From assembly GCA_035510575.1 (NCBI GenBank), contig DATKGV010000004.1, positions 88,419 through 152,418 of the forward strand: a stretch of DNA of 64,000 bases, read 5' to 3'. Below, piece after piece: positions 27,594 to 54,944 of the stretch. The DNA comes from Minisyncoccota bacterium. GTDB lineage: Bacteria > Patescibacteriota > Minisyncoccia > Phycocordibacterales > UBA9973. The position numbers and the translations under genes are program-made. Position 1 is the first letter of the stretch; each line of letters opens with the position of its first letter. Below the pieces are notes generated by a model. That model did not search any database and was not told where the DNA came from. It was given only the letters and a program-made list of their open reading frames with translations.

Positions 27594-27597
27594 GATT

Positions 27598-27807
27598 TTA
27601 TTTTTTCTTTTTAGCTTGCTTCTTCTCTACTTTCTTTACCACATCTATAACCTTGCGCCCGTTGTAAAAACCGCAATTTTTGCAAATTATATGAGTTTCC
27701 TTTGCTCCCTTGCAATTTGAACACGTGGCAAAAACCTTGGCTTTCAAGGCATGATGTGATCGGCGGTTCCCCGTATGAGCTCGCGTATGTCGCATTCGTA
27801 CTACCAT
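27598..27807 (-). CDS. rpmF: 50S ribosomal protein L32
   Basis: RMRHTRAHTGNRRSHHAL N-terminal block plus a CxxC...CxxC zinc ribbon. Confidence 0.7.
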   Translation of the reverse strand: MVVRMRHTRAHTGNRRSHHALKAKVFATCSNCKGAKETHIICKNCGFYNGRKVIDVVKKVEKKQAKKKK

Positions 27808-30464: not shown

Positions 30465-30487
30465 TCCCATAGGTCTGACCTATGGGA
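30465..30487. repeat. REP-like palindrome TCCCATAGGTCTGACCTATGGGA
   Basis: Palindrome with arms of about 11 bp and an unpaired centre base. Lies 3 nt after the thrS stop and contains the TAG stop of RAYT2. Confidence 0.85.
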
Positions 30488-31205: not shown

Positions 31206-31225
31206 AGGTCTGACCTATGGGAGAT
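31197..31225. repeat. REP-like palindrome ATCTCCCATAGGTCTGACCTATGGGAGAT upstream of RAYT2
   Basis: Palindrome with 14-bp arms and the same core as 30465..30487. Confidence 0.85.
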
Positions 31226-31263
31226 TTAGTTAACTTATAAACCAAGAAAAATCTTAAATTAAT

Positions 31264-40423: not shown

Positions 40424-41803
40424 TCAATCCGACTTTAATATAGTTACCAGCTTTGAAGCAAGGCCGGTATATGACAAAGGCGTCAATTTTTTAAGTTCTG
40501 ATTTTAATTGCGGAGAAACTTTCAAACTGTCTATGAATTTCGCAAAATCATTCATAGATACTTTCTTGCCGCGAGTAAGTTCTTTGAGGGCCTCATAAGG
40601 TATCGGATAACCTTCTCGCCGCAAGATCGTCTGGATCGCTTCGGCTATGATTTCCGGATGCGATAGCAAATCATCTTTAATCTTCTCTTCATTGGCGCTG
40701 ATTTTGCTTAAACCCTTTTCAAGTGCAAGATAAGCCACATGCGAGTGCCCGAATGCCGTACCAAATGTTCGCTTAACAGTTGAATCAGACAAGTCGCGCT
40801 GAAGCCGGGAAATCGGCAATTTCTGCGAGAAAAATGAAAACAGCGCGTTTGCTATGCCAAGGTTGCCTTCGCTGTTTTCAAAATCAATTGGATTGATTTT
40901 ATGCGGCATAGTCGATGATCCTACTTCGCCTGCTTTCGGCTTTTGAATTATGTATCCGTCGCTGATATATCGCCAGATATCTTGATTAAAATCCAAAAGA
41001 ATAGCATTGGCGCGCCTGATAATATCGAAAAGTTCCGCGTACGTGTCATGAGGTTCGATCTGGGTCGTAATTAAATTGGCTTCAAAAGAAACATGCGCTA
41101 TTTTGCCGATGTGATCTGCAAAATCTTTGGAAAATTTTATCCAATTTGCCTTTGGATAGGCGGAGACGAAAGCATTATAGTTGCCAGTCGCGCCGTTTAA
41201 TTTTATTAAAATTTTATTGGAAGAAAGCTGATCAATCTGGCGATTCAATCTGGCGATATACACCGCGAATTCTTTGCCAAGAGTCGTTGGGCTGGCTGGC
41301 TGGCCGTGAGTGCGGGCAAGCATGGGCAAAGATTTGTATAATTTTGAAAATGATTGCAGTTTGTTTTTTATATCAATAAGCTCTGGAATAATGGCATCTT
41401 TGCAAGCGAGTGAAAGTATTAATCCATAAGCGCAATTATCCGTATCTTCAGATGTCAGCCCGAAATGCACCCATTCAATAATATCTTTCAAGCTGGTGCT
41501 CTGTAAATTTTCCTTTATGAAATATTCAACCGCTTTGACATCATGATTTATCGCCGCTTCAAAATCCTTGATTTTTTTATACGATTTATCGTCAAACTTT
41601 TCATACAGCAAGCGCAATATTTTTATTTCATTAGAAGTAAATTTCCTGAGCCCTGTTATATTCGCGCTAGATAAGCGAATTAAAAATTCGCATTCCACCA
41701 TAACGCGATATTTCATTAATGCCTGCTCGGAAAAATACGGCGAAAGCGACCTGGTTTTCTCGTAATATCTGCCGTCCAAAGATGATATATTTTCGCCTTT
41801 CAT
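40424..41803 (-). CDS. purB: Adenylosuccinate lyase
   Basis: Fumarate-lyase signature GSSTMPHKINP. TSEDTDN block. Confidence 0.9.
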   Translation of the reverse strand: MKGENISSLDGRYYEKTRSLSPYFSEQALMKYRVMVECEFLIRLSSANITGLRKFTSNEIKILRLLYEKFDDKSYKKIKDFEAAINHDVKAVEYFIKENLQSTSLKDIIEWVHFGLTSEDTDNCAYGLILSLACKDAIIPELIDIKNKLQSFSKLYKSLPMLARTHGQPASPTTLGKEFAVYIARLNRQIDQLSSNKILIKLNGATGNYNAFVSAYPKANWIKFSKDFADHIGKIAHVSFEANLITTQIEPHDTYAELFDIIRRANAILLDFNQDIWRYISDGYIIQKPKAGEVGSSTMPHKINPIDFENSEGNLGIANALFSFFSQKLPISRLQRDLSDSTVKRTFGTAFGHSHVAYLALEKGLSKISANEEKIKDDLLSHPEIIAEAIQTILRREGYPIPYEALKELTRGKKVSMNDFAKFIDSLKVSPQLKSELKKLTPLSYTGLASKLVTILKSD

Positions 41804-41812
41804 AAAATATGT

Positions 41813-42775
41813 TTACTTTATTTTGCTTAAATTGTTTTTAATGCGCTCCATTATCGGCCGTGAAAAATCATGCAGAAACGGCTTGCCTGTAATCGTTTCG
41901 TATATCTCAATATAACGCCTGGAAAGCTCGGCGACAAGTTCAATCGGTGCTTCAGGCAGCACTTTGTCATTATACGGATCGCAGTGTTCTTTAAACCATA
42001 AGCGTAGAAATTCTTTGTCAAAATATTCAGGTTCAAGCCCCGCATTGAAGCGTTCATTATAGCTGTTGGCCTTCCAATAACGCGATGAATCAGGCGTATG
42101 TATTTCATCAATCAGAGTCAACTTGCCGTCTTCATCAATGCCGAATTCATATTTAGTATCGACAAGAATCAACCCGCGAGACAATGCTATTTCTTGTCCT
42201 CGGATAAATAATTCTTTGGCTATGCGTTCAACTTCGTCGGCCATTTCTTTAGCAAGCAATCCTTCGGAAACAATTTCGGCAGGAGTAATCGGGCGATCAT
42301 GCTCGTCTGATTTTGTCGTCGGAGTAAAAAGCGGTTCTGGAAGCTTTTGATTTTTCTTCAGTCCTTCAGGCAATATAAAGTTACCGAAATCGCGCTTGCC
42401 GTCCTTGTAATGAGTCCAAAGCGACGTGCCAGTTACTCCGGTAATATATCCGCGGACAACAGCTTCAATAGGAAGCGGCTTGCATTTCTTGGCTACAAGC
42501 ACATTCGGGTCAGGCACGCTTAAAACATGATTCTGTATGATATCTTTGGTATTTTCAAACCAAAAAGCGCTGATCTGATTCAGAACTTCCCCTTTGAAAG
42601 GTACATGTGCAATAATTCTATCGAATGAAGAATGGCGGTCGGTTGAAATAAGTATTATTTTATCCGGATTAATATACACATCACGCACTTTGCCGACTTT
42701 TTTTTGTCCAATACCAGCAAAATTCGTTTCTGTTATGACATCGCCTATATGCTGTTTTATTTTTTCTATATCCAT
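41813..42775 (-). CDS. purC: SAICAR synthetase
   Basis: GKVRDVY and LISTDRHSSFDRI blocks. Confidence 0.9.
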   Translation of the reverse strand: MDIEKIKQHIGDVITETNFAGIGQKKVGKVRDVYINPDKIILISTDRHSSFDRIIAHVPFKGEVLNQISAFWFENTKDIIQNHVLSVPDPNVLVAKKCKPLPIEAVVRGYITGVTGTSLWTHYKDGKRDFGNFILPEGLKKNQKLPEPLFTPTTKSDEHDRPITPAEIVSEGLLAKEMADEVERIAKELFIRGQEIALSRGLILVDTKYEFGIDEDGKLTLIDEIHTPDSSRYWKANSYNERFNAGLEPEYFDKEFLRLWFKEHCDPYNDKVLPEAPIELVAELSRRYIEIYETITGKPFLHDFSRPIMERIKNNLSKIK

Positions 42776-42780
42776 ATATA

Positions 42781-43935
42781 TTAATAAATAATTTTTTTAT
42801 TGGCAGTTAATTTTGAAATTATGGAAACCTGAGGTTTATTTTCTTTGGTTATTCTTCCGGCAACTTTGGCTTGTATATTAAACTCTTGAGCTCTTTTTAT
42901 GCAGTAATCGGCATCTTTCTCGTCTATGACAAGCAGCATTCCTTGCCCGCCATGCCATACTTCATAAAATTCTTCATCAGTCAATTTGCGCCATTCCGCG
43001 CAATCTCTCATAATCTGCGGAGGATCCCATAAATCGGTAAGCAGGGCGGAAAGCCCTCGCTGGAAAAGAATATCTTTGGCAAACTTTTCTTTTAAAGCTC
43101 CGCCAGAAAGATGAACAATTAAGTGGATTTTAATTTCCGGCTTGAAATCCTCAGCAAACCATCCGTGCAGAGTATTGATAAACATATCATAAAGAACAGA
43201 AGGAGTTGCCGCCAGTTTTATGCTTTCTTTCGCATCTTTATTTGCCCACCATTTTTCGCCGAATTTTTCTTTCAGAGCTTTTCTCAATGAACTTATTCCA
43301 TTACAGCGAAAACCGTTTTCTTTTAAGGCGATAATCGTCTGCCCCGGCGCCAAAGTATCGCCTGTAATCATTTTGTCTTTATGGTAGGCGCCGATCATCG
43401 TGCCGGACCAATTCAATTTGGTTTTGGAGTCGGATATTTCAGAGCCGATAGCATCTCCCATTTGGGCGGTTTCGCCTTTCAAGACCACGATTTTGCTTTG
43501 TTTTGCCACTTCGCCTAATCCCAAAATGGCGCTTTTGTATGTCTCACTCACTTCATCCCCTTCATTTCCGATAGAACTTGTATCAAAAACATTTATAAAA
43601 ACAAGCGGGATTCCGCCGAAACGGGTAATGTCGCTTGAAGTCATCGCGATAATGTCGTATGCCGCCAGATGATGAGTTTTGGCTGCATCAATAATGATGC
43701 CTTTCGTGCCAATGCCATCGGTAGACGCTTCAATGGAAAATCCAGCTGGCAGGTTTTTAAAATTAAAAGGCCGAGGTCCGCGGAAGTTACCGCCAGAGAG
43801 ATCATGCACTTCTATATATGGAGAATTATTATAACTTGCTTTACAAATTGATCCGGCGAAACTGCTAAAAGAAGATTCTTCTTCAACATCAACTCCGTCT
43901 TGCGAATAGATTTTCTTCTTTGTTAGTTCGCTCAT
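42781..43935 (-). CDS. purM: AIR synthetase (phosphoribosylformylglycinamidine cyclo-ligase)
   Basis: YSQDGVDVE, ASTDGIGTK and HLSGGAL blocks. Confidence 0.9.
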   Translation of the reverse strand: MSELTKKKIYSQDGVDVEEESSFSSFAGSICKASYNNSPYIEVHDLSGGNFRGPRPFNFKNLPAGFSIEASTDGIGTKGIIIDAAKTHHLAAYDIIAMTSSDITRFGGIPLVFINVFDTSSIGNEGDEVSETYKSAILGLGEVAKQSKIVVLKGETAQMGDAIGSEISDSKTKLNWSGTMIGAYHKDKMITGDTLAPGQTIIALKENGFRCNGISSLRKALKEKFGEKWWANKDAKESIKLAATPSVLYDMFINTLHGWFAEDFKPEIKIHLIVHLSGGALKEKFAKDILFQRGLSALLTDLWDPPQIMRDCAEWRKLTDEEFYEVWHGGQGMLLVIDEKDADYCIKRAQEFNIQAKVAGRITKENKPQVSIISKLTANKKIIY

Positions 43936-44459
43936 TTTTTATTTTCTTCCAGATAATTTTTAACTCCAATTTCAGAAAGTTTATCACCTTTAGTTTTAAC
44001 TTCATCATTCATCTTTTTCTTGTAGTTTATCATTTTATCTAAAAGATCCTTATCAGAAAGCGCCAATATTTGAATAGCAAGCAGAGCGGCGTTCTTAGCG
44101 CTATCGATGCCTACTGTCGCCACAGGCACGCCGGGTGGCATCTGGACAGTTGATAGAAGCGAATCAAAGCCATCTAAGGTTTTCGCTTTAACAGGAAGAC
44201 CGATAACTGGAAGCGGTGTCAATGATGCAATTACGCCTGCCAAATGAGCTGCTCCGCCTGCACAGGCAATAATAACTTTTAATCCATTAGACAATGCAGA
44301 AGTCGCATAGGCATGAACTAATTCAGGGGCTCTGTGAGCTGATGCAACTGTTATATCGTATGACACTCCAAATTCTTCTAATAAAATTGAAGCCCCAGAA
44401 GCAACTGAAAGGTCAGAATCTGACCCCATAACTATTCCCACTTTTGCATCTTTTTTCAT
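43932..44459 (-). CDS. purE: N5-CAIR mutase
   Basis: VGIVMGSDSDL, SAHRAP and ACAGGAAHLAGV blocks. Confidence 0.9.
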   Translation of the reverse strand: MKKDAKVGIVMGSDSDLSVASGASILLEEFGVSYDITVASAHRAPELVHAYATSALSNGLKVIIACAGGAAHLAGVIASLTPLPVIGLPVKAKTLDGFDSLLSTVQMPPGVPVATVGIDSAKNAALLAIQILALSDKDLLDKMINYKKKMNDEVKTKGDKLSEIGVKNYLEENKK

Positions 44460-44723
44460 AATGTGATTTTATCATTTCAAGAGAAATGTAACAAGCGCAA
44501 AAAAAAGACCTTTTTAAGAAGATCTTTTTTTATTTTTGACTATGTTCATAAGTGCTGTCATAATCATTGCCATTATCAATCTTCTCAGGATTATGATCAG
44601 AAGATTTTAATATTTTTGCACTTTCACTTCCTTGAAGATCAAATACTTGATTCTCTACATGCATACAATTATGAATTTAATTTATTTTCCTGAATCATAA
44701 CAAATGTCCGCCTTGGTGTCAAA

Positions 44724-46016
44724 TTATTTCTTCAAATATTTTAGCGCTTTTTGCCCTATATCGCGCCGGTATTGCATGCCATCAAATGAAATTTTTGATA
44801 CGGCTTCATAGGCACTTTTGAGCGCTTCTTTTAAAGTATTACCTATTGCGCTTACTCCAAACACACGTCCGCCATTTGTCACAAAATTTCCATTTTCATC
44901 AAGCTTCGTTCCAGCATGAAAAACAAAAATATTTGAATTATTTTCTGCTTCTTTTATTCCAGAAATAATTTTGCCTTTTTCATAATTCCCCGGATATCCG
45001 CCTGAAGCAAGCACTATTGTGCAAGCAAAAAGCGGTTTCCATTTTATATTAATAGTGGAAAGTGTGCCATTTATGCAAGCTTCAAATATATCCAGAATAT
45101 CGGTTTCCAAAAGCCGCATGTAACTTTGCGTTTCGGGGTCGCCGAAGCGGGCATTGTATTCAAGTATTTTGGGACCATCTTTTGTAAGCATCAATCCCGG
45201 ATAAAGTACGCCGACAAACGGCATTCTTTGCGCATTCATGGAAGATAATGTCAGTTTGATAATACTGCTTTCTACATCCGCCATAATATCATCCGTTACA
45301 AACGGCAACGGCGCAATCGTTCCCATACCGCCGGTGTTTAATCCCATATCTCCTTCGCCGATTCTTTTATGATCTTGCGATGGCGGGAAAATTGAATATG
45401 ATTTGCCGTCAGAAAACGCATGCGTTGATATTTCAATGCCTTCCAAAAATTCTTCAATCACGACTTCATTGCCTGATTCGCCGAATATTTTTTTTACCAA
45501 AATATCAGAAAGGGCCTCTTTGGCTTCTTCGTAATTGGCGCAAATAAATACTCCTTTGCCTAGAGCCAGTCCGCTTGCTTTAATTACAATAGGCAATTTT
45601 TGATTATCTAAATATTTAATGGCCTCATCAAAATCAGTAAAAGTTTTAAAGCTGGCAGTTGGTAAGTTATAGGTCTCCATAAAATGCTTGGCAAATGCTT
45701 TTGATGATTCAAGTTGAGCCGCTGCTTTGGTAGGTCCGAAAATTTTCAAGCCATTTGCCGTAAATATATCAACTATTCCAAGGGCAAGCGGGTCATCCGG
45801 AAGCGCCAATGTCATATCTATATTTTCTTTTTTGGCAAAATCAAGCAACGCATTAATATCAGTCGCTTTTATATCCACATTCTTTCCCAAACTAGCTGTA
45901 CCTCCATTCCCCGGCGCAAAAAATAACTCTTCTGCGCGCGGCGACTGCGCAACTTTCCATCCTATCGCATGCTCCCGTCCCCCGCTTCCAATGATTAAAA
46001 TTTTTAGTTTGTTCAT
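44724..46016 (-). CDS. purD: Phosphoribosylamine--glycine ligase
   Basis: KILIIGSGGREHAIGWK plus an ATP-grasp body. Confidence 0.9.
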   Translation of the reverse strand: MNKLKILIIGSGGREHAIGWKVAQSPRAEELFFAPGNGGTASLGKNVDIKATDINALLDFAKKENIDMTLALPDDPLALGIVDIFTANGLKIFGPTKAAAQLESSKAFAKHFMETYNLPTASFKTFTDFDEAIKYLDNQKLPIVIKASGLALGKGVFICANYEEAKEALSDILVKKIFGESGNEVVIEEFLEGIEISTHAFSDGKSYSIFPPSQDHKRIGEGDMGLNTGGMGTIAPLPFVTDDIMADVESSIIKLTLSSMNAQRMPFVGVLYPGLMLTKDGPKILEYNARFGDPETQSYMRLLETDILDIFEACINGTLSTINIKWKPLFACTIVLASGGYPGNYEKGKIISGIKEAENNSNIFVFHAGTKLDENGNFVTNGGRVFGVSAIGNTLKEALKSAYEAVSKISFDGMQYRRDIGQKALKYLKK

Positions 46017-46037
46017 AAATAATTTAATTTCTCTTAG

Positions 46038-46071
46038 TGCTACAAACTCTGCACGTGCAGAGTTTGTAGCA
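46038..46071. repeat. 34-nt perfect palindrome TGCTACAAACTCTGCACGTGCAGAGTTTGTAGCA (copy 1)
   Basis: The reverse complement, computed by hand, equals the sequence. Lies between the purD start and the stop of the Cys-rich gene. Confidence 0.9.
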
Positions 46072-46081
46072 TTTTGTTATT

Positions 46082-47821
46082 TTAATACACCTCTTGTTGA
46101 TAACACTTTTCACAATAAATAATTTCTGGCCTCTCAGGTGCATAACTTGTCTCAAATTCCACTTGGCATTTTCCTTGATGAATATGAGTGGTTTTATCGC
46201 ACATGCATGATCTATGCCAGAGTTTCATGGGGTTTCTTTGAGCTAGTCGCTCATAGTGCCGACAGTTAGGACAGAGATGAGGTAATGGCAAGTTCATTCT
46301 CTTGTAGAATTGAAGCTCTTCAGGGATGATCTTGAAGGCCTCGGTGCATTGTTGGTTACAGGTTCCTTTATGATTACATTCTATGACTTTACCTATGATG
46401 TCGTCTGTTATGTCTTTTATGTTATCGGGAATGTCTTTATTGTATATATCTATCTCATAGTTTCTTTCTTCTTTGTCTTTCCATTTGTAACCTTGATTTA
46501 AAGCTTGTTCTTTAGTTAATGGGAAGTACTCTTGAGCTATTGTTTCGTTGTAGCAGAATGGTGATAGTTCGCTTGGGAAGAATTCTCCATATTTATATAT
46601 TCTACCTTTACTATCTATGTAGGGCATATCGTTCATGTGCTTGATGATTTTGGGGACTAATTCTTCATATTCTTCTTTGGTGTATTGACGGTTTAGGATG
46701 CAGAATTGATTACTCTTTAAACTAGTACACCCAAACAAATCAGAAGAAGACGCACAAAAATCTGAATAAAAAACATTTCTTAGATTTTTTAATCCATTAT
46801 TTGCAAATAATAAATTATAGCTATTATTTGCTCCCCCTCCGGAAAATTCATAAATTAATTCGCAATCCGCTATATTATTACCTTCATAACAATCTTTGGA
46901 TCCATAACACCTAAATATATTTTTTGTATTTTCGATATTATATGCATCAAAAGACATTTTTGCATTTTTTGCATTAGATAATTCATCGCCTGTACTACTT
47001 GTAGATTTTATTATTTGAGCGTATTTACGAGGAAATTTTTTCATAATATTTTCAAATTCTTCTTTTGTTTTTTGGATATTTCTAAAACTACCAAAATCAA
47101 AAGTTTTAATTTTCTCTTTATACTCTTTCTCATTAAGTTGTATGTTGTTAAAAACATATTTTTTATTTCTTAACCCTACTGAACAAAAACAATTCTGACA
47201 ATCAATACAATCAAAAAGAAAAGATGAATCAATGCAATTTCGGCAAAGTATCAAAAAAGACGAATTATAGTTATTTTCTCCTCGAATATTTTCATAGCAT
47301 AAATTAGAGTTAATAAGACTCAAGCTATCAAAAACATCTTTGGATCTATCAATGCTTTTGCAAAAAAATATATTTTCCGAATTATTTACCGAAAATGATA
47401 AGTAAAGATTTTTACTTTCGCCAATTATATTGGAATATTCGCTATTTAAACAATTTCTGTTGAATAAGTTAGGTCTTGGAACTTTTTGATTTAATTCTTT
47501 CAATTGTTCAAAGAATGATTTAGAAAAATCATATTTTAAACCAAACGACAAAGGGTCCCAATTGTCGGAATACCAACAATTTATGCAATATATGGGAAAA
47601 GAAGAATTCTGATGGTACATAGTTATGCCTTTTTTACCACAAATACCGCAAGTAAAATGATAAAGTGATCTTTCGTTACGAAATTGAATACGGCGCATTG
47701 TTCTACATTCAAAACAAAAAGTCGGCAGAGGAACTTTTATTTTTTCATAAAAAGAAAAGTCGTCTAGCTCAATAATAAAGTTGTTTTTGCAATTTTGGCA
47801 GATTTTAGTTTCTGAATTCAT
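46082..47821 (-). CDS. Cys-rich multi-zinc-ribbon protein (579 aa) with N/S-rich low-complexity centre; unknown function
   Basis: N-terminal CQNC...CFEC and C-x2-C...C-x2-C pairs. The C-terminal ribbon repeats the N-terminal motif (FY.K...PLP..C..CR...R...RN occurs at both ends). More than 40 Cys in total. No RuvC, HNH or radical-SAM motif was recognised. AT3-biased codons. A paralog lies at 1..249. Confidence 0.7.
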   Translation of the reverse strand: MNSETKICQNCKNNFIIELDDFSFYEKIKVPLPTFCFECRTMRRIQFRNERSLYHFTCGICGKKGITMYHQNSSFPIYCINCWYSDNWDPLSFGLKYDFSKSFFEQLKELNQKVPRPNLFNRNCLNSEYSNIIGESKNLYLSFSVNNSENIFFCKSIDRSKDVFDSLSLINSNLCYENIRGENNYNSSFLILCRNCIDSSFLFDCIDCQNCFCSVGLRNKKYVFNNIQLNEKEYKEKIKTFDFGSFRNIQKTKEEFENIMKKFPRKYAQIIKSTSSTGDELSNAKNAKMSFDAYNIENTKNIFRCYGSKDCYEGNNIADCELIYEFSGGGANNSYNLLFANNGLKNLRNVFYSDFCASSSDLFGCTSLKSNQFCILNRQYTKEEYEELVPKIIKHMNDMPYIDSKGRIYKYGEFFPSELSPFCYNETIAQEYFPLTKEQALNQGYKWKDKEERNYEIDIYNKDIPDNIKDITDDIIGKVIECNHKGTCNQQCTEAFKIIPEELQFYKRMNLPLPHLCPNCRHYERLAQRNPMKLWHRSCMCDKTTHIHQGKCQVEFETSYAPERPEIIYCEKCYQQEVY

Positions 47822-47857
47822 GCGTAAATTATAACCCCAAAAACCCTCTTCTACAAG

Positions 47858-47891
47858 TGCTACAAACTCTGCACGTGCAGAATTTGTAGCA
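47858..47891. repeat. 34-nt palindrome copy 2 (1 mismatch) centred in the divergent promoter region; candidate operator
   Basis: TGCTACAAACTCTGCACGTGCAGAATTTGTAGCA. Each arm contains a TTGTAG hexamer roughly 16-17 nt upstream of a TATAAT-like element, one for each divergent gene. Confidence 0.85.
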
Positions 47892-47915
47892 TATTATTTT
47901 TGATTAATATATAAT

Positions 47916-48398
47916 ATGAACATGTCTATTGTTATGGAAATTTTAGAAGAACTTTGGAACACTGAGCTTAATTATAAAGGAATTAAAGTAAATATTTTTG
48001 GTATTCCTCGTTTTAAACAATATTCATCTAAAAGCGTTAGGGCAACTATTGATCGCCTAAAAAGAAAGGGCGTCATAGAAAAAGAATTAACTGGAATAGT
48101 ACTCTCAAAATATGGCAAAGAATATGTCAGAAGAAAAATTGATTCATTAAAACAATTTGATAGACCAGAAAATATATCTAAAGATAAAAATCTTCTAGTA
48201 ATGTTTGATATACCTGTTGAGAAAAAAGGGGAACGCGAATGGTTCCGATGGCATCTCAAAAAATTTGGTTATATTATGATTCAACATAGTGTATGGGTTG
48301 GACCATCTCCCCTACCCAAAGAATTTCTTGATTATGTTAAAAGTATAAAACTTGATAAATGTATTAAAACTTTTAAACTTGAAAAACCTTATAAATAA
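47916..48398 (+). CDS. Minimal PaaX-like regulator: winged-HTH plus Cas2-like domain
   Basis: The N-terminal wHTH (VRATIDRLKRKGVIEKE...LSKYGKEYVRRK) parallels PaaX (VRTALFRLNKEGWL...LSDKGLRLTRR). The block LLVMFDIPVEKKGEREWFRWHLKKFGYIMIQHSVWV fits the Cas2 / PaaX-central-domain pattern (beta-strand with Asp, basic helix, G...Q.SVF/W). Confidence 0.65.
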   Translation: MNMSIVMEILEELWNTELNYKGIKVNIFGIPRFKQYSSKSVRATIDRLKRKGVIEKELTGIVLSKYGKEYVRRKIDSLKQFDRPENISKDKNLLVMFDIPVEKKGEREWFRWHLKKFGYIMIQHSVWVGPSPLPKEFLDYVKSIKLDKCIKTFKLEKPYK

Positions 48399-48401
48399 GA
48401 A

Positions 48402-48435
48402 TGCTACAAACTCTGCAGGTGCAGAGTTTGTAGCA
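48402..48435. repeat. 34-nt palindrome copy 3 (centre CAGGTG instead of CACGTG)
   Basis: TGCTACAAACTCTGCAGGTGCAGAGTTTGTAGCA. Starts 4 nt after the stop of the PaaX-like gene. Confidence 0.85.
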
Positions 48436-48459
48436 TTCTTGGAAAACGATTACATGAGA

Positions 48460-49179
48460 TTATCCTTTCGGATACATCTTAATTGCAAGCTGTTTGCATT
48501 CTTCTAAAATTTTCTCTTCACTTGGTAATACAAGAGGTGTTTCGCGAATAAATTCTGAAACATTTCCATTGGCAAAATCGCGGAGAGTTTCAATCTGCAC
48601 TTCATGCTCAATCGGAAGCACTCGCGCTTGGAGTATTTCTGCAGTATCGTTTTGAAATATTGGCACTTGCTTTCTTTTCACAATTTTTCCTTCATCAAAA
48701 TCAACTGTAACTCTATGGGCTGTAGCTTCTGTCCAAAAATCTTTGTTCGTCCTGCGGACAAATTCCAGTCGCGCTTGGTGAACGCGCATTCCATACATTC
48801 CAACTCCGCCAAAGTCAGGTCGCCCTGTGTCCAATGGTCCTGGATGCTGATTGATAATCATATTTTTGTAGGCCTCTATGACATTGCTTGGCGTTTTAAC
48901 TAGCCAGCCATATTGGCCGATAAAATCAACATTTCTCTTCTTGCATTCGGCAAGAATAGCTTCTCCATATAAGCTGTTATCAGCAAATGCTTTTGGATTT
49001 AAAACTAGAATATCTTTTTCTTTAATGCCGAGATCGAGCGCTTTTTGTATTCCTCCAATTCCCTCTTTGCTGGCAATAACAAGAGCAGGAACAACGCCTT
49101 GCAAAGCATTATCTTTGCAGGCCTTTATAATTGCCTGCATAGTAGTTCCGCCGCCAGATATGAGCAAAGCGATTTTCAT
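48460..49179 (-). CDS. purN: Phosphoribosylglycinamide formyltransferase
   Basis: MKIALLISGGGTTMQAII plus a formyltransferase core (INQHPGPL). Confidence 0.85.
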   Translation of the reverse strand: MKIALLISGGGTTMQAIIKACKDNALQGVVPALVIASKEGIGGIQKALDLGIKEKDILVLNPKAFADNSLYGEAILAECKKRNVDFIGQYGWLVKTPSNVIEAYKNMIINQHPGPLDTGRPDFGGVGMYGMRVHQARLEFVRRTNKDFWTEATAHRVTVDFDEGKIVKRKQVPIFQNDTAEILQARVLPIEHEVQIETLRDFANGNVSEFIRETPLVLPSEEKILEECKQLAIKMYPKG

Positions 49180-49184
49180 AAAAA

Positions 49185-50582
49185 TTATTCGTAATGGATA
49201 TTATAATTGACTTCTTCTTTTCTTTCTAAAATATCAATCGGATAAACGCCGGTAAAAGCCGATAATGAAAAATTTTCTTTCGGGAGCCCTGTGGCCTTGA
49301 CCATGCCGTCAATTGACAGGAATGACAAAGAAGTCGCTCCCAAATATTCTCTTGTCTCTTCTATTGTTCTTTGCGAGGAAATCAAATTAACTTGCTTGGG
49401 AGTATCAATGCCGTAAAAATCAGGAAATCGGACAGGCGCCGAACTGACCATAAAATGCACTTCTTTGGCGCCGGCATCAAAAAGCATTTTGACTATCTGC
49501 TGGCTGGTCGTGCCCCGCACGATAGAATCATCAACGACTGCTACTCGCTTTCCTCGTATTGTTTCTTCAAGCGGAGTCAGTTTCATTTTGACCTTCTGCT
49601 CGCGATTTGCCTGTGTCGGTTCGATGAATGTGCGATGTATGTAGCGATTTTTGACTAAAGCCATTTCAAACGGTATGCCTAATTCCTGCGAATATCCGAT
49701 TGCCGCCGGAATTGCGGTTTCCGGCACGGGTATTACGATGTCAACTTCTTTCTTGTGTTCCTGCGCTAATATTTTGCCGAAATTCTTGCGGACTTCATAG
49801 ACCGATTTGCCCATTATGACGCTGTCATAGCGAGCAAAATAAACGAATTCGAAAATATCAAACTTCGGTTCAGCTTTTTTGAGAATTTTGCTTTCTATCC
49901 CATTTTTCGTGATAATCACCATCTCGCCGGGACTGACATCTCGCAAGAATTTTGCGCCGACAGTACGAAAGGCGCAAGTTTCAGAAGCCACGACTATTTC
50001 ATTTTTATCCGATTTGCCGATGACAAGCGGACGAACGCCGCAGTAATCGCGAAATGCCACCAGGCAGTCGCATGATAAAGCCACGCATGAAAATGCTCCG
50101 GTAAAAAGCGGATAGGCCTTTTCTACGGCAATCGGCAAAGAAAATCCGTCATCCATGTAAGCTCCGATGGCTTTAGACATTAATTTAGAATCAGAACAAT
50201 CTGAAATATCTTCGCCTCTGTCGCTTAAGAATTGAATAAGGGCTTTGGCGCTGGGAAGATTGCCATTATGGGCGAATGCCATTTTGCCTTTATACATTAT
50301 GGGCTGCGCATGCTGTATGCCTAAACCGCGCGAAGTCGAGTAGCGATTATGCCCTATCGCCGCAAATCCTGGAAGCTCTTTAAGAATTTCTTCCGTATAA
50401 ATCTGGCTGACAAGCCCTGTTTTCTTGTATAAAAATATATTCGAGCCGTCGGTCGTTGCAATGCCAGAATGCTCTTGGCCCCTATGCTGAAGAGCGAACA
50501 ATCCGAAATAGGCCTGGCGAGCCGCATCGCTTCCATCCCAGATTCCGAAAACCGCGCATTTTTCATTTAGTTTATTATTCAT
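49185..50582 (-). CDS. purF: Amidophosphoribosyltransferase
   Basis: N-terminal nucleophile Cys (CAVFGIW), LQHRGQEHSGI, and a PRTase motif. Confidence 0.9.
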   Translation of the reverse strand: MNNKLNEKCAVFGIWDGSDAARQAYFGLFALQHRGQEHSGIATTDGSNIFLYKKTGLVSQIYTEEILKELPGFAAIGHNRYSTSRGLGIQHAQPIMYKGKMAFAHNGNLPSAKALIQFLSDRGEDISDCSDSKLMSKAIGAYMDDGFSLPIAVEKAYPLFTGAFSCVALSCDCLVAFRDYCGVRPLVIGKSDKNEIVVASETCAFRTVGAKFLRDVSPGEMVIITKNGIESKILKKAEPKFDIFEFVYFARYDSVIMGKSVYEVRKNFGKILAQEHKKEVDIVIPVPETAIPAAIGYSQELGIPFEMALVKNRYIHRTFIEPTQANREQKVKMKLTPLEETIRGKRVAVVDDSIVRGTTSQQIVKMLFDAGAKEVHFMVSSAPVRFPDFYGIDTPKQVNLISSQRTIEETREYLGATSLSFLSIDGMVKATGLPKENFSLSAFTGVYPIDILERKEEVNYNIHYE

Positions 50583-51376
50583 TATTTTTTAAAATAATTA
50601 ACGGCATTCTTGAACAAAGTAAGGCCGGGCCCGTCTGCGGGAATATTTTTTTTCTTTCTTAATAAAATTTCTTTCTTTATCTGCCAATTCGGCATTTGCT
50701 GGAAGAACATGGCGCGCTCTGGATGAGGCATCAGCCCTAATACTCTCCCATTATACCCCAGTACTCCGGCAATATCTCGCATAGCGCCGTTTGGATTGGC
50801 TTTTAAATTCTGATACTTGCACATTTCGCCTTTTGTATAAATAAAAGCGATCTGTCTGCCTTTTCGCATTTCTTTATATTCTTTTTCTGAGATGACATAT
50901 CGTCCTTCGCCGTGCGCTATAGGCAACGATATTTTCTTAAGATTGCCAAGCCACGGGCTCCTGCCAAGAACTTTAAGATCTACCCATCTATCTATATATT
51001 GTCCGCTTTCATTATGCGCGAGTCCGCCCGGAAGCAAACCGAGATTAGTGATTATTTGAAAGCCGTTGCATATGCCTATGGTCAAAGTGTCGCGATTGAC
51101 AAACCCTTCCAATTCTTTCTTTAAATGATTTTTAATCTTATTGGCATAGGCCTTGCCGCTGCCGGTATCATCGCCATAAGAAAATCCGCCCGGAAATACG
51201 AGAATTTGGTATTTCAAAAACATTGCAGGATTTTTAATTAAATCATTTATATGCACAATATCTGCTTCCCCTCCCGCTTTCTCAAAAGCAAATTTTGTCT
51301 CTTCTTCACAATTAAGCCCATATCCGGACATTATGAGTGCTTTTGGCTTTTTAAAATTTTTTTTGTCTTTTTTCAT
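50582..51376 (-). CDS. purQ: FGAM synthase glutaminase subunit
   Basis: Class-I GATase with a GICNGFQI nucleophile elbow. Confidence 0.9.
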   Translation of the reverse strand: MKKDKKNFKKPKALIMSGYGLNCEEETKFAFEKAGGEADIVHINDLIKNPAMFLKYQILVFPGGFSYGDDTGSGKAYANKIKNHLKKELEGFVNRDTLTIGICNGFQIITNLGLLPGGLAHNESGQYIDRWVDLKVLGRSPWLGNLKKISLPIAHGEGRYVISEKEYKEMRKGRQIAFIYTKGEMCKYQNLKANPNGAMRDIAGVLGYNGRVLGLMPHPERAMFFQQMPNWQIKKEILLRKKKNIPADGPGLTLFKNAVNYFKK

Positions 51377-51377
51377 A

Positions 51378-54300
51378 TTATTCCATCTTATTTGAAAAAT
51401 AGTTATACGATCCTGATAGTTTTTTAAGGTTTGTATCTATGACATTATTACCTTTTTCATCTTTGACAATCAGCTTCTTGTTGTTAGAAACAATCCCAAT
51501 CTTTGCAAATGGAATATTTTTCATCAATTTTTCGAACGAAGCCACATTTTTCTTCCCAACTGTCACAACAATTCTTCCTTGGCTTTCAGAAAAAAGTTTT
51601 GAATCAATAGTTGTGGCTTTTCCTTTCATATTCTTTATTGAAATATTGGCGCCAAGCATGCCACCTATGCTTCCTTTCGCAAGCGCGCACGCAAACCCGC
51701 CAGAAGCAATGGAAATGGAAGATGCTATCAATTTTTTATATATCGCCTTCTCTAAAGCTCTATATATTTTTGTATTTTTCTTGAAATCTACTTTAGGCAC
51801 ATTATTGCCAATCTTTGAGGTATTATTCCCGGAAAGTAATTTAAAATATTCCGACGCGCCAAGCTCGTCGTGCGTTTCGCCGATTAGATATATGATATCT
51901 CCCGCCATTTTGAAATCGGGCGTAACGCATTTATTAATATCAGGAATAACGCCGATAGCCGAAATAAGAAGCGTAGGAGGTATGGAAATCGCAACGGGAT
52001 TGCCTTTATCATCATAGCCCTTAAAATCATTGAACATGCTGTCTTTGCCTGAAATAAATGGCGTGCCATAACCGACAGCATAATCATAACAAGCGCGAAC
52101 GGCTTTTATGAGTTCTGCCAGCCGATTTTTGTCATAAGAAGAGCACCAGCAGAAGTTATCAAGAATTGCCAGATTATCAAGCGATGCTCCGCAAGCGACT
52201 GCGTTCCTGATGGCCGTATCTATAGCGCAAGCAGCCATGTGATAAGCATTTATATCGGAATATGAAGGATATAAGCTGGATGAAAGCGCAACTCCTTTCA
52301 TTGATGGCAATACCGGGCGGATGATTTGAGCGTCCGTATTGATGCGGCCGGCGCCGAATAACGGCTTGATAACCGATCCGGCCTGCACTTCATGATCGTA
52401 CTGCTCGGATATCCATTTGAAGCTTCCGATATTGCCGGTCTTTAAAAGTTCCAGCAAATATTTCGTTCGTGAATTGCCTTTCGGCAAATCAGGTTCGGCA
52501 TAATTTTTCGGCATAGCAAGCGATTCCAAGTGGCGATGAGGCAAGCCGTTATGCAAGAATTCCATTTCAATATCCATAATAATTTTGCCATTATGCCTGA
52601 CAACGCAATGCGAAGAATCAGTGAATTCTCCTATTCGGCAAGCTAGCACCCCGCGGGACTCCATTAAATCATTGAATGCCTTCCATTTATCTTTTGGCAC
52701 AGAAAGAGTCATGCGTTCCTGCGATTCAGAAATCCAAATCTGCCACGGCATAAGTCCGGGGTATTTAAGAGGCACTTTTTCAATATCAACAATTGCTCCG
52801 CCATATTTGCTGTTAGAAGAAAAAATTTCTTTAGCCATCTCGGCAACTGAACACGATAAACCGCCGGCGCCGTTATCGGTAATGCTGGTGTATAGCCCCA
52901 AGTTTCTCGCCTCTTTGACTATGGCATCGCTTAATTTCTTTTGAGTGATCGGATCGCCTATCTGGACAGCTGTCGCCGGACTTGATGAATCCATTGCCAC
53001 AGACGAGAACGTCGCTCCATGAATGCCGTCAGCTCCGACTTTTCCTCCGATAATGACTATGTAATCGCCTTTTTGCGCGCATTTTTCATGAGACGGCTTG
53101 CCGTTGATAATTCTCGGCAAAAGACCGATAGTGCCGACAAAAACCAGTGGCTTTGCGCGAAATCTGTCATCATATCTGGCAAATCCAGAGACAGTAGGAA
53201 TTCCAGAACAGTTGCCGCCGACATTTACGCCTCTGATAACTCCGTCAATAATGCGCTTCGGCGGAAGCATTTTTTGCGTGAGATTTTTGTCGCGAAATAG
53301 CGGCCTTTTGTCGTCGGGATTGCCAAAACAAAATCCGTACATATTTGCCACCGGCTTTGCTCCCATGCCAAAACCGATAGTGTCGCGATTGACACCGACA
53401 ATGCCAGTAATAGCCCCGCCGAATGGATCAAGCGCCGATGGGCTGTTATGCGTCTCCACTTTGTGAGTAACCATAAAATCCTTGTCAAAAACAATTCCTC
53501 CGGAATTATCCGAAAATACTGAAATGCAAAAATCGTTCTTTCCTTTCTGCTTGCGAATAAGATTTGTCGCGCCCTTTATGTACGTCTTATATAATCCATC
53601 TTTTATATCATCAATCGAATTTGCAAATATCGTGTGCTTGCAGTGCTCGCTCCAGGTCTGCGCCAATGATTCCAATTCAATATCGGTCGGGTCACGCTGT
53701 AAATCTCTAAAATGTTTCTGAATTATTTTCATTGATGACAAGTCAAGAGCCAGCGGTCCGCGGCGCGAGCCTGCTTGCGCAGATAGGCCATCTCTATCTT
53801 GTATTCCTTCTTTTCCTATTTTTATAAGTTCATCGTCAGATACATTAAGAGGCACATTAATGACGGGAATTTTTTTAGGCAAGATAACTTGAGGCACTAT
53901 AAGAGGCAAAGAATTATTTTTCTTAACAATGCCAGCTTCCGTAATTCCAAACCTTTCTATAAGCGGATTATGAAGAGACAAGGCGATTTTTTTCATATCA
54001 GATTCCGTGACATTGCCTGAAACGAAAAAAAGCCGCGAGGTATAGACAGCTTCATTCGCGCCAAGCGCGCGTCCTATGCAGTCGGAAATTTCTTCTTTGG
54101 CGGTTTGTCCGACATTATCCGTAACTCCCGGCAAAAAGCCGATTTCGCAGACAAAAGAAAAATCGCCTATTCCAGGCAATGTATTTATGCTATGCGTTTC
54201 AATGACGGGATTAGTTAAAGTAATGGCTGATTTTGCAAGTTCATCACTTGAAAGTTTGGCATCTATGGTATATGAATCAACCAAAGAAACATGCGCCACC

Positions 54301-54392
54301 TTGCCGTTAATATCAAGCTTATTGAATGATTTTTGATGCAATATCCCGCGACTATCTTTACCTTTTGGTGCAATATATATGCGCGAAATCAT
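51378..54392 (-). CDS. purL: FGAM synthase PurS-PurL fusion
   Basis: An N-terminal PurS-like domain of about 80 aa, followed by PurL AIRS-type domains. 1004 aa. Confidence 0.9.
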   Translation of the reverse strand: MISRIYIAPKGKDSRGILHQKSFNKLDINGKVAHVSLVDSYTIDAKLSSDELAKSAITLTNPVIETHSINTLPGIGDFSFVCEIGFLPGVTDNVGQTAKEEISDCIGRALGANEAVYTSRLFFVSGNVTESDMKKIALSLHNPLIERFGITEAGIVKKNNSLPLIVPQVILPKKIPVINVPLNVSDDELIKIGKEGIQDRDGLSAQAGSRRGPLALDLSSMKIIQKHFRDLQRDPTDIELESLAQTWSEHCKHTIFANSIDDIKDGLYKTYIKGATNLIRKQKGKNDFCISVFSDNSGGIVFDKDFMVTHKVETHNSPSALDPFGGAITGIVGVNRDTIGFGMGAKPVANMYGFCFGNPDDKRPLFRDKNLTQKMLPPKRIIDGVIRGVNVGGNCSGIPTVSGFARYDDRFRAKPLVFVGTIGLLPRIINGKPSHEKCAQKGDYIVIIGGKVGADGIHGATFSSVAMDSSSPATAVQIGDPITQKKLSDAIVKEARNLGLYTSITDNGAGGLSCSVAEMAKEIFSSNSKYGGAIVDIEKVPLKYPGLMPWQIWISESQERMTLSVPKDKWKAFNDLMESRGVLACRIGEFTDSSHCVVRHNGKIIMDIEMEFLHNGLPHRHLESLAMPKNYAEPDLPKGNSRTKYLLELLKTGNIGSFKWISEQYDHEVQAGSVIKPLFGAGRINTDAQIIRPVLPSMKGVALSSSLYPSYSDINAYHMAACAIDTAIRNAVACGASLDNLAILDNFCWCSSYDKNRLAELIKAVRACYDYAVGYGTPFISGKDSMFNDFKGYDDKGNPVAISIPPTLLISAIGVIPDINKCVTPDFKMAGDIIYLIGETHDELGASEYFKLLSGNNTSKIGNNVPKVDFKKNTKIYRALEKAIYKKLIASSISIASGGFACALAKGSIGGMLGANISIKNMKGKATTIDSKLFSESQGRIVVTVGKKNVASFEKLMKNIPFAKIGIVSNNKKLIVKDEKGNNVIDTNLKKLSGSYNYFSNKME

Positions 54393-54461: not shown

Positions 54462-54944
54462 ATGGAAAAGATAAATATCTACATAGATGGTAACAATTTA
54501 TACCGATCGGCTAAAGAATTAGGATTTGAAATTGATTACAAAAAATTTAGAGGATGGCTTAGGCAGAAATATAATGCAAGCAATATCTATTTATTCATTG
54601 GTCTTGTGCCCGAAAGAGTAAAATTCTATGAACACCTGCAAAGTTGTGGCTATATTTTAGTTTTTAAACAAACAGTTTCTATTGGAGAAAAAATAAAAGG
54701 AAATTGTGATGCGGAACTTGTATTAAAAACCGTATCTGACTTTTACATTAAATCTTTTTCAAAATGCATTTTGATCACTGGTGATGGAGATTTTGGATGT
54801 TTAGTAGAATTTTTAAAAGAAAATAAAGTTATAAATATAGTAATAGCTCCCGATGAAAATAAATGCTCCATTTTATTAAGAAATAAAAATATAGAAATTA
54901 CCTTTTTAAACGAGCTTTATCATAAATTTTCAAATAAGATATAA
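54462..54944 (+). CDS. NYN/LabA-like domain protein (putative RNase)
   Basis: INIYIDGNNLYRSAK start and an ILITGDGDF block typical of NYN. Confidence 0.7.
   Translation: MEKINIYIDGNNLYRSAKELGFEIDYKKFRGWLRQKYNASNIYLFIGLVPERVKFYEHLQSCGYILVFKQTVSIGEKIKGNCDAELVLKTVSDFYIKSFSKCILITGDGDFGCLVEFLKENKVINIVIAPDENKCSILLRNKNIEITFLNELYHKFSNKI

Follow-up and report, generated by a model that had tools for sequence, protein, structure and literature searches.

A winged-helix, Cas2-like protein of Patescibacteria whose gene lies between lineage-specific palindromes

What does a small protein do that one database names after CRISPR and another after phenylacetate catabolism? The window (the whole 64-kb stretch of patescibacterial DNA analysed here) encodes such a protein. 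GenBank holds an identical protein under the name "CRISPR-associated endonuclease Cas2", and JGI calls relatives "DNA-binding transcriptional regulator PaaX". The earlier note, made from the letters alone, described a Cas2-like domain behind a winged helix. The main clue to the function of the protein escaped that first reading: the palindromes that flank its gene.

Domains and database names

The reading frame in the ORF list has 160 codons (Table 1). The second Met codon, at which most homologues begin, is likely to be the true start, which would give a protein of 158 amino acids. A database search found about 2000 homologues, mostly 156-160 amino acids long and beginning with MSI. A second reading frame in the window (54462-54944) also has 160 codons, but it encodes a NYN-domain protein and is not a paralogue.

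Table 1. Features of the gene and its surroundings, in window coordinates
Feature	Position	Strand	Remarks
Third palindrome copy	46038..46071	.	17-nt perfect arms
Cys-rich 579-aa protein	46082..47821	-	divergent from the winged-helix + Cas2-like gene; a palindrome copy on either side
Upstream palindrome, TGCTACAAACTCTGCACGTGCAGAATTTGTAGCA	47858..47891	.	in the divergent region between the two genes
TTGTAG, -35-like hexamer	47884-47889		in the right arm of the upstream palindrome
TATAAT, -10 box	47910..47915	+	6 nt upstream of ATG 47922
Winged-helix + Cas2-like protein, CDS	47916..48398	+	160 aa; ORF list
N-terminal winged helix-turn-helix	47916..48155	+	aa 1-80
Predicted recognition helix	48027-48065	+	aa 38-50
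Wing of the N-terminal domain			aa 54-63
Cas2-like ferredoxin-fold domain	48192..48383	+	aa 93-156
Codon of Asp98	48207-48209	+	residue invariant in the family
Downstream palindrome	48397..48440	.	21-nt perfect arms, 2-nt centre; begins inside the stop codon of the gene
Core of the downstream palindrome, GCTACAAACTCTGCAGGTGCAGAGTTTGTAGC	48403-48434		

The two-domain architecture proposed in the earlier note holds up. The N-terminal domain has a winged-helix fold of the typical DNA-binding type. The C-terminal domain matches Pfam PaaX_M (PF20803, "PaaX central Cas2-like domain") with an E-value of 3.4e-12 and 46.7 bits (gathering score 24), so that a PaaX_M domain follows a winged helix as in the PaaX family. 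Its nearest folds are those of PaaX and Cas2. It shares the hallmark of Cas2, a ferredoxin-like b-a-b-b-a-b fold of about 90 amino acids whose first strand ends in a conserved Asp. A single-sequence search of the PDB gave chance matches to staphylococcal enterotoxins and nothing else.

The block quoted as the Cas2 core, LLVMFDIPVEKKGEREWFRWHLKKFGYIMIQHSVWV, lies at residues 93-128. Its pairing with the central segment of PaaX was recovered by hhalign, which places residues 35-156 of the family profile on residues 51-172 of E. coli PaaX (E 0.0025). A likeness of the N-terminal part to the PaaX winged helix had also been claimed; it stands by fold and in this alignment but is weak in sequence, as the PaaX N-terminal profile PF07848 stays at noise level (E 0.2).

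Six residues (D98, R107, R111, S125, W127 and G129) are invariant throughout the family, even where identity falls to about 27%. The alignment pairs ..LLVMFDIP.. with ..WLLLLSEG.. of E. coli PaaX, which has a Ser in the place of D98. The protein thus retains the signature Asp and Arg of Cas2 that are replaced in PaaX, and in the signature residues its C-terminal domain resembles true Cas2 more closely than PaaX.

Neither database name fits. The Cas2 reading can point to NCBIfam TIGR01573, which at 30 bits clears its cut-off of 24.5, yet the match is confined to residues 93-129 and covers 38 of the 96 model positions (3-40), all within the first 40. PF09827 is absent from the Pfam scan of the protein and precomputed for some homologues. 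Unlike Cas2 and its relative VapD, the domain is fused to a DNA-binding domain, and its gene is tied to dispersed palindromes instead of clustered repeats. As the earlier note had stated, cas1 and a CRISPR array are missing from the surroundings: we detected no tandem or CRISPR-like array across the 64-kb window, and a Pfam scan of 24 of its ORFs gave no match to the Cas1 family.

The PaaX reading can point to the PaaX_M domain. However, E. coli PaaX (PDB 8a39) has 316 amino acids, made up of PF07848, PF20803 and a C-terminal domain, whereas our protein ends at residue 160. The C-terminal, ligand-related domain is missing, as had been claimed, and the full-length equivalog model TIGR02277 gives 26.1 bits against a cut-off of 264.55. 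Furthermore, the gene lies in a genome of the Patescibacteria without paa genes nearby; its neighbours are purB, C, M, E, D and purN, F, Q, L.

For the 64-kb window, both a bona fide Cas2 of CRISPR adaptation and a PaaX orthologue that represses phenylacetate catabolism are refuted, and we consider either extremely improbable. The GenBank name is a misannotation. We propose instead, with somewhat better than even confidence, a sequence-specific nucleic-acid-binding protein that is neither a CRISPR component nor a phenylacetate regulator. The names matter because thousands of patescibacterial proteins wrongly carry one or the other. Patescibacteria are known for few CRISPR systems, and mislabelled Cas2 proteins inflate the CRISPR counts in this group.

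The protein, which belongs to uncultured Paceibacteria, is conserved like a housekeeping gene product. Between syntenic genomes its conservation is 78%, compared to 77% for ArgRS and 76% for Tmk, which argues for a cellular function. Orthologues adjoin tmk, dut, argS, NUDIX, glyA and thyA genes, and the position beside tmk is conserved in many genomes. The pur genes can be ruled out as conserved context, because orthologues lie in other neighbourhoods.

Palindromes on both sides of the gene

Within the window, one 32-bp palindrome occurs three times, and all three copies fall inside 2.4 kb around the gene; the chance expectation is none. A fourth copy is not found in the 64-kb window, even with up to three mismatches allowed. 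In this lineage the palindrome reads xxACAAAyTCTGC-N4-GCAGArTTTGTxx and is about 34 bp long.

The third copy belongs to the divergent neighbour. It lies 15 nt past the stop codon of the 579-aa gene and 26 nt ahead of the purD start, and on other contigs a palindrome follows the homologues of this gene at 13-15 nt past the stop. The 579-aa protein has no match in Pfam, NCBIfam or the PDB. Its homologues adjoin 14 palindrome sites in metagenomes, and at four loci (L005, L007, L010, L011) they lie at most 5 kb from an orthologue of our gene. In the window, the two genes and their palindromes sit inside a same-strand pur cluster, which they split.

The upstream copy is part of a promoter. A Shine-Dalgarno sequence is absent and the -10 box lies close to the likely start codon, which suggests a promoter of the leaderless type. 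In the window the spacer between TTGTAG and TATAAT measures 20 nt. Among 40 non-redundant related loci, the centre of the upstream palindrome is found 43-48 nt ahead of the start codon in every case. TATAAT is perfect in 35 of the 40 and lies 6-9 nt from the start codon in 35, and in 29 a TTGTnn in the right arm is followed by a 17-nt spacer to TATAAT. A symmetric site that overlaps its own promoter, together with a DNA-binding domain in the product, is what an autoregulated winged-helix factor displays. The -35 role could account for part of the conservation of the upstream palindrome.

How general is the bracketing? Two copies of a lineage-specific palindrome, each about 34 bp long, flank the gene in the window and at about 90 loci of homologues whose protein identity goes as low as 30%. 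At loci selected on protein similarity alone (37 genome loci and 7 loci of 30-37% identity), the gene has such a palindrome on either side, and the flanks score higher for palindromes than 356 gene ends that served as controls (Mann-Whitney test, p 8e-10 upstream and 2e-8 downstream). Counted over non-redundant loci, both flanking cognate copies are present in 44, and the downstream copy is found in 7/7 distant homologues examined. Bracketing holds at 87% to 30% identity and in differing neighbourhoods, and the palindrome sequence shifts with the protein lineage. Even paralogues in one genome each have a palindrome variant of their own (L018, L024, L032). This family-wide bracketing by lineage-specific palindromes is the new observation here.

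Protein and palindrome also vary together in detail. The outer box of the upstream copy changes with residues of the predicted recognition helix: RTT occurs together with GACAC, Q(V/I)T together with G(C/A)AAC and Y(N/I)T together with TATAC. Distant lineages can combine a near-identical recognition helix (QTLRxTLSRLKK) with different outer boxes. In more diverged lineages symmetry is kept only in the outer and central boxes, with non-complementary bases between them, and this pattern is more in keeping with a protein site than with a plain hairpin. The outer arms vary between sites, even inside a single locus (L010 has GACAC upstream and TATAC downstream), yet they remain 96-99% self-complementary. 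Such arms argue for a hairpin or cruciform constraint, or for a repair process that perfects palindromes, and not for base-specific protein contacts. Two copies at the same locus have their outer arms in common in 18/19 pairs, compared to 11% of random pairs. The signal for helical phasing of the two flanking copies, as DNA looping would require, is weak (best R 0.33 at a period of 10.0 bp, uncorrected for multiple periods or relatedness).

Dispersed copies and the likeness to REPs

Palindromes also occur far from the gene. Among the matches listed in a metagenomic scan, 57 of 135 sites lie away from any homologue of the protein. The scan demanded an exact match to the 26-nt core; hence we do not count the invariance of the core at these sites and use only the flanking positions as evidence. 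In two long contigs, of 593 kb and 457 kb, there is at least one exact match each. Viral contigs yielded no match to either the palindrome or the protein family.

Many dispersed copies lie 5-50 nt past stop codons. Some are extended by an A-tract and a T-tract and resemble bidirectional terminators. Others lie within genes: at least eight different host genes carry the palindrome in frame, among them those for MiaA, PGK, ArgRS, TsaE, a pseudouridine synthase, an alkylation repair enzyme and a reverse transcriptase. It adds about 10-13 codons, always in the same frame, and encodes TNSA(M)AEFV. For one set of palindromes with wide ORF-free flanks we considered a structured RNA; Rfam returned only tRNAs, and the palindrome in fact lies inside MiaA.

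Among MiaA orthologues of 65-100% identity, one loop is polymorphic both for presence and absence of the palindrome and for its variants. In other lineages the same loop carries HRSDLW, the peptide of a RAYT-type palindrome. In PGK, the loop with the palindrome-coded peptide is variable and, in the alignment, longer by 6 residues; as this is not a clean insertion, PGK by itself does not prove one. A target-site duplication was not noticed at the single in-gene copy inspected (L070).

Genes for RAYTs (REP-associated tyrosine transposases) are typically flanked by their REPINs in a specific association (PMC3337134). The window allows a direct comparison, since it contains two RAYT-like transposase genes (matching PF01797 and NF047646), each bracketed by its own palindromes in the same layout as our gene. 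The RAYT-like genes in the window and at loci L059 and L002 have palindromes of their own, never those of the Cas2-like family.

Several features are shared with REPs, REPINs and RAYTs. A single-copy, vertically inherited gene sits between cognate palindromes in a lineage-specific pairing (PMC3337134), and extra copies are dispersed, mostly right behind genes. There are also differences. The protein lacks the HUH/Tyr transposase domain: Pfam and NCBIfam profiles do not find Y1_Tnp (HUH/Y1, IS200-like transposase) in it. Its palindromes are perfect and symmetric, they apparently number a handful per genome and not hundreds, and the upstream copy forms part of the promoter of the gene.

Candidate functions

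We propose that the protein is probably an autoregulated dimer whose binding site is the cognate, REP-like palindrome of about 34 bp. Cas2-type ferredoxin domains would pair two subunits, as in Cas2 and PaaX, and the dimer would offer two winged helices, one for each half of the palindrome. The upstream copy carries the -35 element of the gene's own promoter, and binding there would set the level of the protein, probably by repression. A second palindrome stands just past the stop codon, with a few more copies elsewhere in the genome. The palindromes behave like REPs in that they are dispersed, homogenised within a genome and inserted in frame in loops of housekeeping proteins. Such behaviour suggests that a small family of palindromic repeats has its cognate partner in this protein, which takes the place that RAYT holds for REPs. 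Against a mere binder speaks the comparison with PaaX, which lacks the invariant Cas2 signature residues; a plain dimerisation domain would hence not need them.

The retained residues also speak for an unlikely alternative: an active nuclease or mobilising enzyme for the palindromes, a functional analogue of RAYT on a Cas2 fold. The winged helices would recognise a hairpin or cruciform, a metal site at Asp98 would nick or cleave it, and the gene would lie between copies of its own substrate. The family-wide invariance of these residues and their loss in E. coli PaaX fit this proposal, as do the bracketing shared with the RAYT-like genes, the in-frame copies in host genes, the polymorphic MiaA loop with its RAYT-type peptide elsewhere, the outer arms common to copies of one locus, and the gene pair that splits the pur cluster. 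Copy numbers are low, however, and the gene is conserved and syntenic in the manner of a housekeeping gene. Known hairpin-recognising transposases use a strand asymmetry that a perfect palindrome does not offer, and the in-gene copy inspected showed no target-site duplication. Moreover, the nuclease activity of Cas2 is weak and dispensable in characterised systems. On the boldest version, an Asp-retaining Cas2 fold joined to a winged helix might be the dedicated enzyme of short palindromic repeats dispersed in Patescibacteria; it might recognise, nick or mobilise the repeats and regulate itself through them. We regard this version as unlikely, too.

Two further explanations are less likely still. 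The protein might be no more than a local transcription factor that regulates the metabolic genes beside it, and the palindromes generic promoter or terminator hairpins, or REPs mobilised by another enzyme, which accumulate around the gene without being the binding site of its product. The position of many copies behind stop codons, the A- and T-tracts and the neighbours in nucleotide metabolism (pur here, and tmk, dut, NUDIX, glyA and thyA at orthologues) are in line with it. We nevertheless consider it improbable: bracketing persists across neighbourhoods with a palindrome that changes with the protein lineage, other intergenic palindromes at the same loci do not carry the core, and the RAYT-like genes have different ones. 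In addition, the genes on either side of the upstream copy are often divergent (in the window and at L007, L010, L011 and L014), so that a terminator is unnecessary there. Alternatively, the Cas2/VapD-type domain might act on RNA. It would bind or cleave the perfect stem-loop that the palindrome forms within coding regions or at the 3' ends of mRNAs, its own included, and would thereby control transcript stability or termination. Strong selection for self-complementary outer arms and the many palindromes at gene 3' ends would suit this explanation. It is very unlikely all the same: an upstream copy that overlaps with the -35 element would fall outside the gene's own transcript, the winged helix at the N-terminus is typical of DNA-binding domains, and the arms are incompletely complementary in diverged lineages.

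If the dedicated-enzyme proposal is true, the family would be a non-HUH counterpart to the RAYT/REP partnership and a free-living Cas2-like protein that acts on palindromic repeats outside CRISPR. It would then have a bearing on the way in which palindromic repeats and the CRISPR adaptation module were first linked. Should the Cas2-type residues be catalytic, the family would provide the first Cas2-fold enzyme to be associated with repeats outside CRISPR. The bracketing palindromes provide a concrete experimental target in a family that is conserved like aminoacyl-tRNA synthetases in Paceibacteria. In the literature we found no paper that joins PaaX with Cas2 or PaaX with Patescibacteria, and none that describes intergenic repeats of a palindromic kind from the Candidate Phyla Radiation.

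The in-frame copies have a parallel in Rickettsia. Rickettsia palindromic elements are short palindromic repeats that lie in frame within protein-coding genes. Both kinds of element occur in conserved housekeeping genes, in surface loops where the host protein tolerates them. The palindrome described here is much shorter, always uses one reading frame and is linked to a specific gene that it brackets. It forms a REP-like family that inserts in frame into essential genes, and its cognate gene belongs to no known transposase class.

Fold and conservation of the protein

The ORF list confirms the reading frame at 47916-48398 (+), with a product of 160 aa. In most relatives the second methionine (47922, MSI..) is the start, which gives 158 aa. 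The Pfam profile PaaX_M ("PaaX central Cas2-like domain") matches residues 93-156 (E 3.4e-12, 46.7 bits, gathering score 24). In NCBIfam, the Cas2 equivalog TIGR01573 reaches 30 bits (cut-off 24.5), but only over residues 93-129, and the PaaX equivalog TIGR02277 reaches 26 bits (cut-off 264.55). An AlphaFold2 model computed from 78 diverse family members (mean pLDDT 88) contains helices at 5-15, 38-50 and 65-77 and a beta-hairpin wing (54-63), followed by a b-a-b-b-a-b domain at 93-154. Its top Foldseek match is E. coli PaaX (8a39, E 0.019), and several Cas2 structures are found as well (e.g., 5zyf, probability 0.99, TM 0.58 on the target).

Profile and structure searches of the kind proposed in the earlier note retrieve both PaaX and Cas2, and the alignment it drew with these proteins is correct: hhalign pairs ..VMFDIP.. 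with ..LLLSEG.. of E. coli PaaX (E 0.0025). Its claim of a PaaX winged helix at the N-terminus stands for the fold, which the model contains, but not for the PaaX N-terminal profile, which stays at noise level (Pfam, E 0.2). The reported absence of CRISPR components nearby also holds, with no tandem or spaced repeat array within the 64-kb window and no Cas1 match among the 24 window ORFs scanned.

The family goes by two names in the databases, and both mislead. In GenBank, a protein 100% identical to the target (176.7-kb contig of a Candidatus Paceibacterota MAG) is entered as "CRISPR-associated endonuclease Cas2"; for the relatives, JGI uses "DNA-binding transcriptional regulator PaaX". For the identical protein and many other family members the Cas2 name probably arose because TIGR01573 exceeds its cut-off on a partial match of 38 residues.

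A word-indexed search finds about 2000 relatives; identity is 75-87% and length 156-181 aa in the best 120. An exhaustive search of 50%-identity representatives yields 1430 clusters at E ≤ 0.001. Since nearly all of these are 150-185 aa long, the short two-domain architecture is the family norm. Six residues (D98, R107, R111, S125, W127, G129) are invariant among 78 members reaching down to ~27% identity and in a second alignment of 85; P100, W109, Q123, P130, L133, P134 and F137 are nearly so. The aspartate whose relevance had been left open is thus strictly conserved across the family. Cas2 has an Asp at this position too, whereas E. coli PaaX has a Ser in the hhalign alignment and also lacks the two arginines that the family keeps.

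Between syntenic genomes, mean identity is 78% for the target protein, 77% for ArgRS, 76% for Tmk, 70% for dUTPase and 87% for SHMT. Judged by sequence, this ArgRS-like conservation speaks for a cellular role. We count toward the same role that neither the family nor its palindrome was found in viral contigs, and also the seemingly low palindrome copy number and the recognition-helix relation given below.

Palindromes at the gene ends and in the promoter

The window contains three copies of the 32-bp palindrome GCTACAAACTCTGCAsGTGCAGArTTTGTAGC, where 0 are expected by chance. No fourth copy exists in the 64 kb with three mismatches allowed.

Positions of palindromes, promoter element and associated genes in the window
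Feature	Position	Strand	Remarks
Palindrome, upstream copy	47858-47891		between the 579-aa gene and the target, whose starts diverge
Palindrome, downstream copy	48397-48440		21-nt perfect arms; begins inside the target stop codon
Palindrome, third copy	46038-46071		15 nt past the stop of the 579-aa gene, 26 nt before purD
-10 box of the target	47910-47915	+	
Cys-rich protein, 579 aa	46082-47821	-	many CxxC pairs; between purD and target
RAYT-like gene 1	7579-8259	-	palindromes AGTAAGCTAGGAC.GTCCTAGCTTACT (7562-7588) and ..CCATAAGCTAGGAC.GTCCTAGCTTATGG.. (8269-8309)
RAYT-like gene 2	30480-31205	-	CCCATAGGTC.GACCTATGGG copies at 30465-30487 and 31195-31227

We compared 37 loci from species-representative genomes, picked by protein similarity alone (48-87% identity) and with mechanical ORF calls. 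Nearly all have an upstream palindrome and, 0-40 nt past the stop (up to ~110 nt in a few cases), a second one much like it. Palindrome scores at the target ends exceed those of 356 control gene ends taken from these loci (p 8e-10 and 2e-8, Mann-Whitney); the genomes are related and not independent samples. The closest group shares the core ACAAAyTCTGC-N4-GCAGArTTTGT with variable outer arms; the palindrome of the ~55%-identity group is GTTAA-N5/6-CTGCGATAGCAG-N5/6-TTAAC. Palindromes of their own flank all seven homologues from distant lineages (Jorgensen-, Nealson-, Harrisonbacteria and others; 30-37% identity) on both sides. At one locus (L158) TATATCACTTTCAACG-N-CGTTGAAAGTGATATA stands both upstream and downstream of the homologue, and three paralogues in one genome (L018, L024, L032) each have their own variant. 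Altogether, both flanking copies are present in 44 non-redundant loci. Within the closest group, predicted recognition-helix residues vary in step with the outer box of the upstream copy, a relation that is confounded by relatedness and fails among distant lineages. A canonical parS-type palindrome (AAATGTTTCACGTGAAACATTT, L164 2720-2741) lies ~260 bp upstream of one distant homologue and differs from that gene's own flanking palindrome.

The target gene promoter includes the upstream palindrome. Across 40 non-redundant loci from the closest group, the end of the right palindrome arm reads TTGTnn, separated from TATAAT by 17 nt in 29 loci and by 16-17 nt in 33. TATAAT is perfect in 35 of the 40, and in 35 it is 6-9 nt away from the start codon; the distance from the palindrome centre to the start codon is 43-48 nt in all 40. 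In the window, the spacer from TTGTAG (47884-47889) to the -10 box spans 20 nt, more than most loci have. No Shine-Dalgarno sequence precedes the target start codon. Of 46 window genes, only 3 show an SD-like motif, and in 21 a TATAAT-like box stands 4-10 nt upstream of the start. The usual mode of expression in this genome therefore seems to be of leaderless type.

Copies away from the gene

Metagenome contigs were scanned for ACAAAYTCTGCNNNNGCAGARTTTGT, so that sites were selected on the palindrome core, and contain at least 135 sites. Among the matches listed, 50 lie within 150 bp of a target homologue, upstream or downstream of it as expected. Another 57 are at least 600 bp from any homologue, and 28 are too close to contig ends to be assigned. 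Recurrent neighbours in this list are the Cys-rich 579-aa protein, tmk, NUDIX and glyA; many others occur once, with the palindrome 5-50 nt past their stop codons. The copy number seems low: besides the three window copies there is at least one exact match each in contigs of 593 kb and 457 kb. Flanks outside the search pattern vary, yet they are 96-99% complementary for four positions per side, falling to ~31% by positions 9-10 (at least 125 unique sites). Copies at the same locus share outer arms in 18 of 19 listed pairs, compared to 11% of random pairs.

About 29 listed sites lie inside long ORFs, all in the frame that reads TNSA(M/I/R/P)AEFV. The hosts are MiaA (15), reverse transcriptase (5), PGK (3), ArgRS (2), TsaE, a pseudouridine synthase, a DNA-alkylation-repair protein and a large secreted protein. 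Across 120 MiaA orthologues (P0378-P0497; 65-100% identity), a single surface loop after ..ALGKVP.L.. has several states. It contains TNSA.AEFV in 30 (e.g., TNSAMAEFV, L070 5815-5853), coupled variants that keep the palindrome (TFSA.AENV, TDSA.AESV), unrelated short inserts (HRSDLW/C, ..RQGL(A/G)EN.. such as RQGLGEN, TSNLDVKGCTS), or, in ~25, nothing. The loop looks like a hotspot for palindromic inserts. Such polymorphism in presence and type at one site points to a small insertion-prone repeat and not to an operator that evolved in place. A DNA alkylation repair enzyme (L130) contains two palindrome-type peptides, ..SPKQGLGEK.. and ..TDTNSAPAEFV.., and therefore one gene can host more than one insert family.

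Possible roles and the RAYT parallel

A palindrome inside the gene's own promoter is the classic autoregulation layout for a DNA-binding protein. From the sequence comparisons, we regard a binder and autoregulator as the best supported and a fairly probable account of the target protein. As a dimer it would bind the cognate palindrome, the upstream copy would be the route to control of its own promoter, and the protein would also encounter the palindrome downstream of its gene and at a few further sites. Insulator and organiser were considered beside regulator as roles that need binding only. The invariant Cas2-type Asp and Arg, lost in PaaX, favour cutting in addition to binding, beyond what pure dimerisation would. 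The stronger claim, a nuclease or a mobiliser of the palindrome element, seems unlikely to us. An unrelated hairpin, an RNA-level function and the annotation as given jointly take up the remaining probability.

The target gene relates to its palindrome as a RAYT (REP-associated tyrosine transposase) does to its REP; in its behaviour, the palindrome family resembles a REP-type element of low copy number. RAYT genes are typically flanked by cognate REPINs, and the pairing is specific (PMC3337134). Both RAYT-like proteins of the window match Y1_Tnp/IS200-like (27.1 and 24.7 bits, gathering score 23); the sole NCBIfam match of each is "REP-associated tyrosine transposase", under its cut-off. The second gene contains a third, in-frame palindrome copy directly past the HUH motif (30879-30903), which encodes HRSDLW. 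This peptide is one MiaA-loop insert of other lineages; the target palindrome and a RAYT-type palindrome therefore use the same kind of site. RAYT-like homologues in L059 and L002 have other palindromes on either side, never of the ACAAAyTCTGC type, and the L059 homologue repeats the three-copy layout with a different palindrome.

The binder account may extend to purine synthesis. The target is flanked by purB, purC, purM, purE and purD versus purN, purF, purQ and purL, all on the minus strand, and its surroundings contain no paa genes. With a palindrome in front of purD, the downstream half of the cluster may have been brought under the influence of the target protein. The third copy occupies the expected purD promoter position. 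The near-complete de novo cluster (40424-54392) is broken by a 2.4-kb gene pair with palindromes on either side; nucleotide biosynthesis is usually absent from Patescibacteria. The other member of the pair, the 579-aa protein, has no match in Pfam, NCBIfam or PDB. It is conserved in Paceibacteria, is flanked on both sides by the target palindrome and adjoins 14 of the listed metagenomic sites, usually 13-15 nt past its stop. A functional link between this protein and the target is possible.

Surroundings of the orthologues vary across the 37 loci. In many of them, tmk-(rhodanese)-dut-argS points away from the gene on one side and NUDIX/MazG/glyA converges on it from the other, followed by thyA; some orthologues instead adjoin RNase H, comEC, recJ, pgk or tpi. 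The gene directly after purL (54462-54944, +) likewise encodes 160 aa and was considered as a relative of the target, but it is an unrelated NYN-domain (LabA-like) protein. Elsewhere in the window, perfect palindromes of unrelated sequence lie at gene boundaries (3966-4007, 17280-17310 and 27551-27604, with arms of 21, 15 and 25 nt), and at 13993-17237 cohesin-domain and dockerin/fn3/Big_6-domain proteins are adjacent in this small genome.
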